Origin: a phage
Length of the DNA stretch: 64,000 nucleotides
Direction: 5' to 3' (one strand)
NCBI GenBank assembly: GCA_012112355.1
Contig: GCA_012112355.1_3028.1
Positions 24,850 to 28,225 of this stretch are shown piece by piece; position 1 is the stretch's first letter; each line of letters begins with the position of its first letter. The translations under genes were made by a program, and so were the position numbers. The notes beneath the pieces are model-generated. The model searched no databases, was not told the DNA's origin, and saw only the letters and a program-made list of their open reading frames with translations.

Positions 24850-24879
24850 ATTATACCACATCCTTGTGGTAAAGTAAAC
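24850..24879 (-). promoter_or_regulatory. T4-type early promoter (GTTTAC, 18 nt, TGG-TATAAT) inside the 3' end of gene 39
   Basis: Minus-strand sense GTTTAC-tttaccacaaggatgtgg-TATAAT. Confidence 0.45.
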
Positions 24880-26699
24880 TACTGGCTCATCCATTCTTTA
24901 CGAAGGTCAGCATTATCTCCCATGAGCATTTCAAAAAGCTCTTTCCAGTTCTCAGGAAGTTTAACAACATCATATACCGGATTTTGAATCATCTCACGAT
25001 ATTCAGATTTTTCCAAAGAGCCAAGTCCCTTAATATAACGGATGCTATGTTTAGGTAGAGCATCTTTAGCACTCTCATATTCAGCGACTGTATAAAACCA
25101 TTCTTGTTTTTTACCGACCTGAGCGATGATTACAGGAGTTTTGACAAAGCGAATTCTTCCTTGCTCAAACAATTCTGGCCAATTACTAAAAAATCCGAGC
25201 AGAGAAGGATAAATGCTTCCTAGACCATCATGGTCAGCATCAGTCATAATAGCGATATTATGATAATTCAAGTTTTCAGCTTTTTCACCGAGAACTAATC
25301 CAGTGATTGCGCAAATATCAAATAGTTCTTTGTTTTTAAGCATATCTGCATAAGACATACCCCAACTGTTGAGAACTTTACCACGTAATGGATAACCACC
25401 ATGAAGTTCTTTATCACGAACATCAATAAGATATCCGATAGCAGAATCACCCTCAGTCAAGAAAAGAGTAGTGTCAGCATCTTTACCGCAAAGATTCGCT
25501 TTGATATGTTTATGAACCTTAGCTTTAGAAGCCTTTTTAGCTGCTTTAGTTTCTGCTGCTTTTTCTGCCGCCAATTTACGAGCCAAAGCAGCTTCGATAA
25601 TCGGCATTAGAATTGCTTCATTATTTAGAATAGCGCGTGAAATCTTTTTAGCATCAAGTTGAATATGACTACGGATTTCACCAAATGGAGAAGTCAAACG
25701 CTCTTTAGTTTGAGAATCAAATCGCATGTTTTTCATATCACGAACAAACATAACGATAGTCAAACATTCTTTGACACGTGCTTTAGTTACATCAATTTTG
25801 AACTTACGTTTGATTTGTGGAATAAGGTCTTCACAAATATCATCCATAACACAGTCAATGTGATGGCCACCATTCTTAGTGTGAATGTTATTGACGTACG
25901 TCAACTGACGAAAACCATCCGGTGAACGACCAACCGCAATAGAACAATTTTCTTGTTCTTGAACAATAGCATGTTCATCATACTGTCGTGCATATTTCTT
26001 AAAATTGCCCTGAACCTTTTTACCATTAAAGGTAAATTGAATATCAGGATAAACAACAGCAAGTGTTTGGAGACGATCTAGTGTAATGTCAAGATAAACT
26101 TGGGACAGCTCATTAGTTTCAAATGACATAAAATCAGGAATGAAAGTAACACGGGTTCCTTTCCATTTTCCAGGAATATCTTCCCATGATTTATTTTCCA
26201 TGCCGTTTGAACAACGAACTACAATATTATTTTGACCATCACCAGTTTCACCGACAAACATCACAGAAAAAATGTTTGTCAAACTAGAACCAACACCATT
26301 CATACCGCCAGTGACGCGTTCTTTATCATCACCGAAGTTACCACCCGCTTTTGGAATAGTCCAAGCAGCAACTGGACCAGGAATTTCTTCACCGGTAGGT
26401 GTTTTAACCATCGCTTGTGGAATACCGCGACCGTTATCTTCAACTGTTACCTGATTATTTTTAATGGTAACATTAATTTTATTCGCGAATTTAAACTTAG
26501 TACGAATACCTTCATCGACTGAGTTATCGATAATTTCATCAATAAGCTTAACAAGACCAGGTACATACTGAACACTTTCCCATTTACCAAACAGAAAGCG
26601 CTCATGCATTTCATTAGCAGAAGAGCCAATGTACATGCCACTACGCTTTTTGATATGTTCAATATCGCTCAGAATTTTAATTTCATTCTTAATCATCAC
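24879..26699 (-). CDS. 39: DNA topoisomerase II large subunit (GyrB-like), single uninterrupted ORF equivalent to T4 genes 39 plus 60
   Basis: 606 aa; MMIKNEIKILSDIEHIKKRSGMYIGSS N-terminus. T4 splits this into gp39 and gp60 with a translational bypass; here it is one continuous ORF. Confidence 0.85.
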   Translation of the reverse strand: MMIKNEIKILSDIEHIKKRSGMYIGSSANEMHERFLFGKWESVQYVPGLVKLIDEIIDNSVDEGIRTKFKFANKINVTIKNNQVTVEDNGRGIPQAMVKTPTGEEIPGPVAAWTIPKAGGNFGDDKERVTGGMNGVGSSLTNIFSVMFVGETGDGQNNIVVRCSNGMENKSWEDIPGKWKGTRVTFIPDFMSFETNELSQVYLDITLDRLQTLAVVYPDIQFTFNGKKVQGNFKKYARQYDEHAIVQEQENCSIAVGRSPDGFRQLTYVNNIHTKNGGHHIDCVMDDICEDLIPQIKRKFKIDVTKARVKECLTIVMFVRDMKNMRFDSQTKERLTSPFGEIRSHIQLDAKKISRAILNNEAILMPIIEAALARKLAAEKAAETKAAKKASKAKVHKHIKANLCGKDADTTLFLTEGDSAIGYLIDVRDKELHGGYPLRGKVLNSWGMSYADMLKNKELFDICAITGLVLGEKAENLNYHNIAIMTDADHDGLGSIYPSLLGFFSNWPELFEQGRIRFVKTPVIIAQVGKKQEWFYTVAEYESAKDALPKHSIRYIKGLGSLEKSEYREMIQNPVYDVVKLPENWKELFEMLMGDNADLRKEWMSQ

Positions 26700-26765
26700 T
26701 TATCCTCGTTTGGTTTCGGGAATATTATACTCCGGTAATCATAAAGCTAAAGGCCCGAAGGCCTT

Positions 26766-27035
26766 TTATTTAAAACGAATAGTTGAATCCTTAAAGAACA
26801 GCCCAGAACATACTGTTCCTTCTACTTTCTGCCCGGTAGGTCCAATAGCACGAAATCCAGTATGTTGGAAATCATTTTCAGAGCAACCGAACCAGTTATA
26901 TCCAGTGATTTCAATATTAGTAAAACCACTTGAAGACAAAACTTTAGTTGCATTATCAGCATCAGTACATCCTACTAAAAACACTGCTAATACTAATGCT
27001 GCGATAGAACGATTAATATATTTCATAATTTTCAC
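26766..27035 (-). CDS. predicted lipoprotein
   Basis: 89 aa; MKIMKYINRSIAALVLAVFLVGC signal peptide with lipobox. Confidence 0.55.
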   Translation of the reverse strand: MKIMKYINRSIAALVLAVFLVGCTDADNATKVLSSSGFTNIEITGYNWFGCSENDFQHTGFRAIGPTGQKVEGTVCSGLFFKDSTIRFK

Positions 27036-27403
27036 TTAAATTTAATGGCTTGAAGAAGACTAATAACTCTCAAGCGGCTTCTTTCATCTTTAACTGTAAA
27101 AGAAAGAGGATCGCCAGATTTCATAGTGATAGTGCATTCAAAATCAAAATCTTCTGTAACTTCTTCGAATAGGTCAAATTCTTCATCATAAATTAGAACA
27201 TTACTCTGAAAACTGTGAAGAATTTTTCCATCATTTCCAGATGCTGTACTAATCATTGTGACATTATTACCTTTCATATCTTCAACGATAAATTCGCTTG
27301 TAGATATTACATTACTAATAGAACCATTCCTATAAATAGCAGAAAATAGATATTTCTTTTCTTCACCTTCGCGAATGCGATATTTCTTACCGATTTTAAA
27401 CAT
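27032..27403 (-). CDS. hypothetical protein
   Basis: Track ORF 27032..27409 appears to begin at a GTG; the first ATG gives ~123 aa. Confidence 0.45.
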   Translation of the reverse strand: MFKIGKKYRIREGEEKKYLFSAIYRNGSISNVISTSEFIVEDMKGNNVTMISTASGNDGKILHSFQSNVLIYDEEFDLFEEVTEDFDFECTITMKSGDPLSFTVKDERSRLRVISLLQAIKFK

Positions 27404-27405
27404 AA

Positions 27406-27582
27406 TCACCCTTTAAGTAAGTCGTAAAATCCACCATTCACATGCTTAGGAGCAGAAGGCCGACGAGTAGACAGACGATGACATTTAGGGCAAACATCAT
27501 TTTCTCGTTCAGAAATCTTTTTAATTTTTTCATATTCATGCCCGCAATCTTCGGATTGGCATTTATAATCATACATTGGCAT
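27406..27582 (-). CDS. small zinc-ribbon protein (~58 aa)
   Basis: Manual translation MPMYDYKCQSEDCGHEYEKIKKISERENDVCPKCHRLSTRRPSAPKHVNGGFYDLLKG; CxxxxC...CPKC pairs. Below track cutoff; coordinates approximate. Confidence 0.45.
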   Translation of the reverse strand: MPMYDYKCQSEDCGHEYEKIKKISERENDVCPKCHRLSTRRPSAPKHVNGGFYDLLKG

Positions 27583-27584
27583 AA

Positions 27585-28010
27585 TTATTCCTTAAAATGT
27601 GCTTTCAACATCTGATACAAGGACCATGCCTGTTCATTATTTTCAATAGTAACTTTCATGACAGGAAATTCTGTGAAATCTTCTATTTGTTCTTGCTCTT
27701 TCTCTTCCTGCTCTTGCTCTTCGGCTGCCTGGTATGGATTTTCCACTTCATTAAAGAACTCAGCTTCGCTCGCTGAAAGCCAGATAAAATCTTCATCCAA
27801 AATATCTTTACCAGAAGATAACGCCAATTTTCCACTAGATGTCACAAGTTTAGTAGGACGACCAAGATAGTCAATATCTGTAACTCTAAAAGGTTCCATA
27901 CCTAAACGTCGTGCATAAATTCCGTTTTCAGTATGATATTTAATAAATTTTTCTTGAGCTTGTTTATTTTTAAATTGATACCATTTATTAACTTCAAATT
28001 TAATAGCCAT
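27585..28010 (-). CDS. hypothetical protein; size and position match T4 goF (comC-alpha)
   Basis: 141-aa ORF with an acidic [12 protein letters not shown] stretch; assignment by synteny and size only. Confidence 0.4.
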
Positions 28011-28225
28011 TAATAAATTTCCTTCCAGTAAGTTGTTCCATCTTCAGTAATTTCACGAAATACACCATAAATTGGTTGTTTATCACCGACTTTCTCATAC
28101 ACATAAACCGAAGTCAAGTGAGTAAACTTAACGGTATGTTCCTTTTGAACCACTACCAAATCTGGATCAAATAATACATCTTCAAATTCGTCATTAGTGC
28201 AATTCTGAACAATTTTACGTTTCAT
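28010..28225 (-). CDS. hypothetical protein; size and position match T4 cef
   Basis: 71-aa ORF, start overlapping the upstream stop; assignment by synteny and size only. Confidence 0.4.

Follow-up and report, generated by a model that had tools for sequence, protein, structure and literature searches.

The product of T4 gene 39.2 (Gp39.2, also named NwgI) modulates the GroEL/GroES chaperonin and suppresses groEL/groES alleles (Ang and Georgopoulos, Genetics 2012; as cited in passages of PMC5153855 and PMC4396842). In the passages of PMC5153855 that deal with this protein, genetic and biochemical studies are said to suggest that Gp39.2 shifts GroEL to an 'open' conformation able to bind host or phage co-chaperones, its effects are described as an allele-specific modulation of GroEL conformation, and the growth of T4 carrying a deletion of 39.2 is given as fully blocked on specific groEL mutant hosts. 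The second protein to be compared here is Ruc (Rv0991c) of M. tuberculosis, a redox-regulated chaperone (Becker et al., mBio 2020, PMC7448276). Ruc is composed of an N-terminal Cys4 zinc ribbon (C8, C11, C29, C32), for which binding of one zinc ion was shown biochemically, and a disordered tail; it gains holdase activity upon oxidation, the disordered C-terminal half being required, and it co-purifies with DnaK and aids refolding by DnaKJE (Hsp70) (PMC7448276). Homologues of Ruc consist of a zinc ribbon some 50 aa long and a disordered tail of 7-61 residues; these tails share no significant sequence similarity, and the genes often adjoin chaperone genes, including those of GroES/GroEL (PMC7448276).

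The window (the whole stretch of phage DNA analyzed, 64,000 nt in length) was identified as that of a Tequatrovirus, i.e., a T4-like phage, based on nucleotide identities over 1.7 kb and 20 kb: over the 1.7 kb that surround the ORF described below, the identity is 99.9% with Escherichia phage FriedrichZschokke (Tequatrovirus) and 95% or more with dozens of T-even phages, and the best record over 20 kb of the window shows 97.6% identity. The ORF listing contains an intact ORF started by ATG at 27406..27582 on the minus strand, with 58 aa and a TGA stop, the product of which is MPMYDYKCQSEDCGHEYEKIKKISERENDVCPKCHRLSTRRPSAPKHVNGGFYDLLKG. The original prediction of a 58-aa ORF at 27406-27582 held for existence and length, and its peptide agrees letter for letter with the ORF translation; the strand is the minus strand, on which the exact translation is uninterrupted, and a stop codon interrupts the plus-strand translation of the same interval. 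The ORF had been placed downstream of gene 39, and it does lie to the right of that gene in plus-strand coordinates, yet with respect to transcription it is upstream of gene 39 because of its position on the minus strand.

The order of genes on the minus strand of the window is motB with its neighbours, cef (28010-28225; Pfam T4_Cef, 119 bits), goF (comC-alpha, 141 aa, 27585..28010; annotated as goF in MZ501067, with the same order in T4), the 58-aa ORF, a goF paralogue, 39.1 and 39. In T4, gene 39.2 lies between goF and 39.1, and the slot between goF and 39.1/39 is common to T4, teqskov, FriedrichZschokke, Tegunavirus and Krischvirus. An alignment of the window protein with the 58-aa Gp39.2 of the resequenced T4 (MT984581, used here in place of the frame-shifted NC_000866) covers 58 of 58 residues with 81% identity. 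The two proteins have in common the ligand pattern C-x4-C ... C-x2-C and the C-terminal APKHVNGGFYDLLKG, and they differ by 11 substitutions, most of which are found between the knuckles and just past the second knuckle. As judged from identity and gene order, the ORF is shown to be orthologous and syntenic with T4 39.2 (CDS annotated in MZ501067 and NC_054934); the feature is thus the already known, conserved and experimentally studied T4 gene 39.2 (nwgI).

The window phage differs from T4 in the 123-aa goF paralogue inserted directly 3' of 39.2 (27032..27403, minus strand; 125 aa if counted from an upstream GTG). PHROG phrog_622 matches both goF and this gene, which additionally matches PHROGs named goF and for these reasons looks like a goF paralogue; it corresponds to a 372-nt CDS in MZ501067, is absent from T4 and is present in many other Tequatrovirus genomes. 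The T4 records themselves are discordant in this region. In the T4 reference (NC_000866, AF158101, M89919), 39.2 comprises 45 aa and 39.1 comprises 65 aa, where resequenced T4 genomes have 58 and 86 aa, respectively, and the reference and modern T4 records are only 97.1% identical over the 481-nt stretch of 39.2/39.1. The C-terminus of 39.2 in the reference (..PKHGNNGFYDLLKG) runs on in another frame and the tail is missing from the annotation; the reference thus has 1-nt indels in 39.2 and 39.1 (errors or strain mutations). Annotation pipelines leaning on the frame-shifted 45-aa version of NC_000866 can therefore miss or truncate 39.2.

The gene had been considered unannotated and to fill an otherwise unexplained gap. 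No such gap is present in the public records, and T4 gene 39.2 carries an annotation in hundreds of them, including the closest one, MZ501067 (99.9% identity over 1.7 kb), in which it is CDS bas41_0117, a 'hypothetical protein'. A tblastn search retrieved 886 phage records containing a 39.2 homologue (852 with at least 80% query coverage), and in 216 of the 886 the protein was found at 99% identity or more, some of these being named 39.2. The names given among the 886 records are 39.2, 'zinc ribbon domain protein', 'FmdB-like regulatory protein', 'FmdB-like transcriptional regulator' and 'hypothetical protein'. Orthologues with 36-47% identity occur in Tegunavirus, Krischvirus, Vequintavirinae and jumbo phages. 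Among 1.84 billion cluster representatives, 155 relatives were found at E ≤0.001, nearly all of them small and aligned from residue 1. A word-indexed homologue search returned 7 near-identical proteins only, a low recovery attributable to the shortness of the query.

An ORF of this size in AT-rich phage DNA might have arisen by chance and be unexpressed. Its length by itself is within the range expected by chance, given that it is overlapped on either strand by spurious ORFs comparable in size (44-57 aa). However, substitutions at codon positions 1, 2 and 3 of the 39.2 frame (61, 32 and 171, respectively) show an excess at third positions, and dN/dS against seven orthologous CDSs from T4 and IMG/VR T-even genomes is 0.04-0.15. 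The conservation of the protein between phage genera and families, down to the 36-47% identity given above, and profile scores that exceed curated cut-offs likewise speak against a chance ORF, as do a good Shine-Dalgarno sequence, tight coupling on both sides and the phenotype of the T4 39.2 deletion (in the relevant passages of PMC5153855). A chance ORF is ruled out by the conservation data, and the probability that we would still assign to it is negligible. The 39.2 orthologue is a real gene under purifying selection.

The coupling to both neighbours, which had been claimed from the sequence, is real, the gene being translationally coupled on either side, as seen from the spacing of stop and start codons and the placement of the ribosome-binding signal. 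On the minus strand, the 3' end of goF reads ...AAG GAA TAA, and its stop TAA (27587-27585) lies 2 nt upstream of the ATG of the 39.2 orthologue. The Shine-Dalgarno sequence visible there, AAGGA (27589..27593, minus strand), falls within the final codons of goF and precedes the 39.2 ATG by 6 nt. On the other side, the TGA of the 39.2 orthologue (27408-27406) is 2 nt ahead of the ATG (27403) of the goF paralogue.

Further along the minus strand, the 39.1 protein (26766-27035) has an N-terminus (MKIMKYINRSIAALVLAVFLVGCTDADN) that resembles the signal peptide of a lipoprotein, including a lipobox Cys, and it matches phrog_902 (no known function). In the interval 26700-26765 (minus strand), a perfect GC-rich hairpin (AAAGGCCTTCGGGCCTTT) is found 3' of the 39.1 stop, and a sequence ending in TATAAT lies ahead of gene 39; the two are probably a terminator/promoter pair that sets gene 39 apart from the goF-39.1 unit. 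The hairpin 3' of 39.1 was not among the calls of a simple terminator scan, and the promoter and terminator scan of the locus did not rise above shuffled expectation (12 vs 11.7 promoter-like and 1 vs 1.5 terminator-like sequences). Gene 39 (topoisomerase II large subunit; 24879-26699, minus strand, 605-606 aa) is a single fused ORF in the window, without the split into 39 and 60, the mobA gene and the 50-nt translational bypass of T4.

The assignment of the protein to a zinc-ribbon family was borne out by two profiles with scores in excess of their curated cut-offs, both aligned to residues 1-41: Pfam Zn_ribbon_8 (PF09723) with 45.7 bits (gathering score 34.4) and NCBIfam TIGR02605, 'FmdB family zinc ribbon protein', with 44.9 bits (cut-off 31.3). 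A match to phrog_1076 agrees with this assignment. The two Cys pairs, C-x4-C and C-x2-C, are present as predicted, at residues 8/13 and 31/34. In common with the FmdB family (PF09723/TIGR02605, CxxC_CxxC_SSSS), the window protein has the MPxYxYxC start, the small size, a variable tail and two Cys pairs about 17 residues apart. It differs from the family in the first knuckle, which is C-x4-C and not C-x2-C, and in a short tail with a GGFYD motif that is not Ser-rich.

Conservation of the four cysteines, on which the prediction depended, was found at two depths of the family. Among 9 diverse phage orthologues, M1, P2, Y4, Y6, C8, K22, R26, C31 and C34 are invariant and C13 is a Cys in 8 of 9 (a His in Krischvirus); among 82 distant family representatives, C34 is invariant and C8, C13 and C31 are conserved in at least 90%. 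The four residues (C8, 27559-27561; C13, 27544-27546; C31, 27490-27492; C34, 27481-27483; all minus strand) are thus putative zinc ligands. In the orthologue of Krischvirus Ec_Makalu_003 (RB49-like), the sequence of the first knuckle is C-E-E-H, so that a Cys3His metal site is implied for this protein, and in the orthologues of Vequintavirinae the second knuckle is C-x-C. The spacing within knuckles differs between relatives (C-x-C, C-x2-C, C-x4-C) and the four ligands are always there; the spacing of ligands in this family is unusually plastic.

An AlphaFold model computed with the alignment of 82 sequences gave a mean pLDDT of 81.2, with block means of 90-92 for residues 1-40 and of 57-63 for residues 41-58. 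Four strands (residues 3-8, 16-20, 28-30 and 37-40) form the predicted N-terminal domain. A model computed with 6 close sequences (pLDDT 47.7, a helical guess) was discarded in favour of the 82-sequence model. With the profile matches, the conserved ligands and this model taken together, residues 1-41 (27460..27582, minus strand) are read as a putative FmdB/Zn_ribbon_8-type Cys4 zinc ribbon. The remaining residues, 42-58 (27409..27459, minus strand), are predicted from pLDDT and conservation to form a flexible C-terminal tail that contains the motif SAPK..NGGFYDLLKG. The tail motif SAP..[NH]GG[FY]YD is conserved across the T4-like genera, and a motif G-x-G-[FW]-[YF] recurs in distant family members among the 82 representatives.

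Is the protein a nucleic-acid-binding regulator, as the original prediction had suggested and as an 'FmdB-like transcriptional regulator' would be, with a ribbon that binds DNA or RNA and controls the expression of phage or host genes? Zinc ribbons are common in nucleic-acid-binding proteins, a fold search gave matches to RPB12, L33, MCM and RbpA, although these were weak and non-significant, and the neighbouring genes goF, cef and motB have RNA or transcription as their targets. The labels in RefSeq (for teqskov) and in PHROG (phrog_1076, the match of the 39.2 orthologue) are likewise 'FmdB-like transcriptional regulator', but such a label is a family name spread by similarity and not a tested function; for the member in the window, the function implied by the family name 'regulatory protein' is unsupported. 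In Pfam, the zinc-ribbon family alone passed its threshold in the 39.2 orthologue, and no DNA- or RNA-binding domain did. The Ogr_Delta zinc finger, at 13.8 bits (cut-off 26.3) over 15 residues (5-19), was rejected as a candidate. A search of PDB sequences yielded no relative, the best match being ribosomal bL31 (E 0.78). The protein has only a slight excess of basic residues (11 K+R vs 9 D+E). Moreover, both family members for which experiments were found, T4 Gp39.2 and Ruc, act on protein folding, which disfavours the name 'transcriptional regulator', and the published function in T4 is the modulation of GroEL/GroES. We regard a role as regulator of this kind as very improbable. The database name 'FmdB-like transcriptional regulator' is therefore probably misleading for 39.2, the published role of which is GroEL modulation.

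The comparison with Ruc bears on a further explanation, namely that the protein is a redox-switched holdase of the Ruc type, which would be zinc-bound and inactive when reduced and, upon oxidation, would release its zinc and bind unfolded proteins, the effects on GroEL mutants being indirect and due to a lowered client load. The N-terminus of Ruc, rebuilt from the primer sequences given in PMC7448276, matched Zn_ribbon_8 with 49.4 bits and thus falls into the same Pfam family as the window protein. The architecture is also shared, an N-terminal Zn_ribbon_8 domain with four Cys followed by a disordered tail (in the window protein, as modelled by AlphaFold), and the 17 residues of the window tail are within the range of 7-61 residues reported for Ruc homologues. 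Both Ruc and Gp39.2 are linked to the protein-folding network, and the frequent position of Ruc homologues beside chaperone genes, GroES/GroEL among them (PMC7448276), is consistent with this explanation. Direct similarity between the window protein and Ruc is weak, however (24% over 34 residues), and the short window tail carries a conserved motif, unlike the tails of Ruc homologues, whereas the activity of Ruc needs its long disordered tail (PMC7448276). Furthermore, Ruc is bacterial, activated by oxidation and linked to Hsp70, whereas Gp39.2 is reported to act on the conformation of GroEL, and the allele-specific modulation of GroEL seen with T4, by genetics and biochemistry, points to a direct effect (in the passages concerned of PMC5153855). 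Because of the short conserved tail and the allele-specific effects described for T4, a Ruc-like holdase is the less likely explanation, and we hold it to be very improbable. The word 'phage' is absent from the Ruc paper (PMC7448276), and no paper in the literature searched contains Rv0991c, 39.2 and GroEL together.

The genomic context of distant phage relatives provides additional information on the link to chaperonins. The weakest tblastn matches were to jumbo phages (about 350 kb). The 39.2-like proteins of Klebsiella phage fENko-Kae01 (ENKO_297) and Yersinia phage fHe-Yen9-04 (g260) comprise 67-69 aa, exceed the cut-off of Zn_ribbon_8 (39.3 and 40.9 bits, respectively) and are annotated as hypothetical proteins only. 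They show 34-43% identity to the window protein and have in common with it the signature MPLYTY[KR]C-x4-C-x-H...KIVK[IL], but they are longer and their tail reads ..GNWF..TG.Y. In both phages, the 39.2-like gene is directly followed by a gene whose annotation is chaperonin or co-chaperonin GroES (Pfam Cpn10, 66.6 and 61.2 bits). When IMG/VR was scanned with the family alignment, 42 loci were found, 8 of them from jumbo phages, and in all 8 the start of the Cpn10 homologue is either no more than about 20 nt away from the end of the zinc-ribbon gene or overlaps with it. The pairing is kept in spite of divergence down to 49% identity among the zinc-ribbon proteins and 53% among the Cpn10 proteins. 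Since these phages represent one related lineage, the adjacency counts as a single evolutionary observation and not as ten; it points to the chaperonin system independently of the literature. Three distant family members in metagenome contigs had no recognisable chaperonin neighbour, so that the adjacency is specific to the jumbo lineage. The neighbourhood with chaperone genes is thus seen in Ruc homologues and, as Cpn10, in the jumbo-phage relatives but not in the window, where no chaperone gene was found next to the 39.2 orthologue (its neighbours being goF, the goF paralogue, 39.1 and topoisomerase).

Taken as a whole, the locus is very probably best explained as the orthologue of T4 39.2/NwgI, a zinc ribbon with a tail that, by orthology, acts on the host GroEL. 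Given 81% identity and the same slot, the window protein probably shares the function of T4 Gp39.2. Gene 39.2, as a gene of the early region, would be translated from a goF-39.2-...-39.1 message into a protein in which the putative Cys4 zinc ribbon (residues 1-41) is followed by the short flexible tail with GGFYD (residues 42-58). This protein would push GroEL to an open conformation that binds a co-chaperonin, either the host GroES or the phage gp31. The T4 capsid protein gp23 depends on both GroEL and the phage co-chaperonin gp31. A shift of GroEL by 39.2 may promote GroEL-dependent folding, e.g., of the major capsid protein, on hosts with a poorly matched GroEL. The gene was reportedly first selected from RB69, and the homologues of RB43 and RB49 are said to be alike in behaviour. 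It is pure speculation that GroEL is contacted through the surface of the hydrophobic tail motif.

The pairing with GroES in jumbo phages and the domain shared with Ruc support a chaperone-related role of the zinc-ribbon family. It is conceivable, although we put it forward as a tentative and rather doubtful suggestion, that Gp39.2/NwgI and Ruc are two faces of one ancient Zn_ribbon_8/'FmdB' family that tunes the chaperone network rather than transcription and was repeatedly recruited by phages as a chaperonin accessory. The family would then form a two-gene module with a phage GroES in jumbo phages, and in T4-like phages it would work with gp31, which is encoded elsewhere. If this were true, the label 'FmdB-like transcriptional regulator' would misname thousands of proteins, and the conserved G-G-[FYW]-[YF] tail would become a candidate motif for contact with chaperonins.
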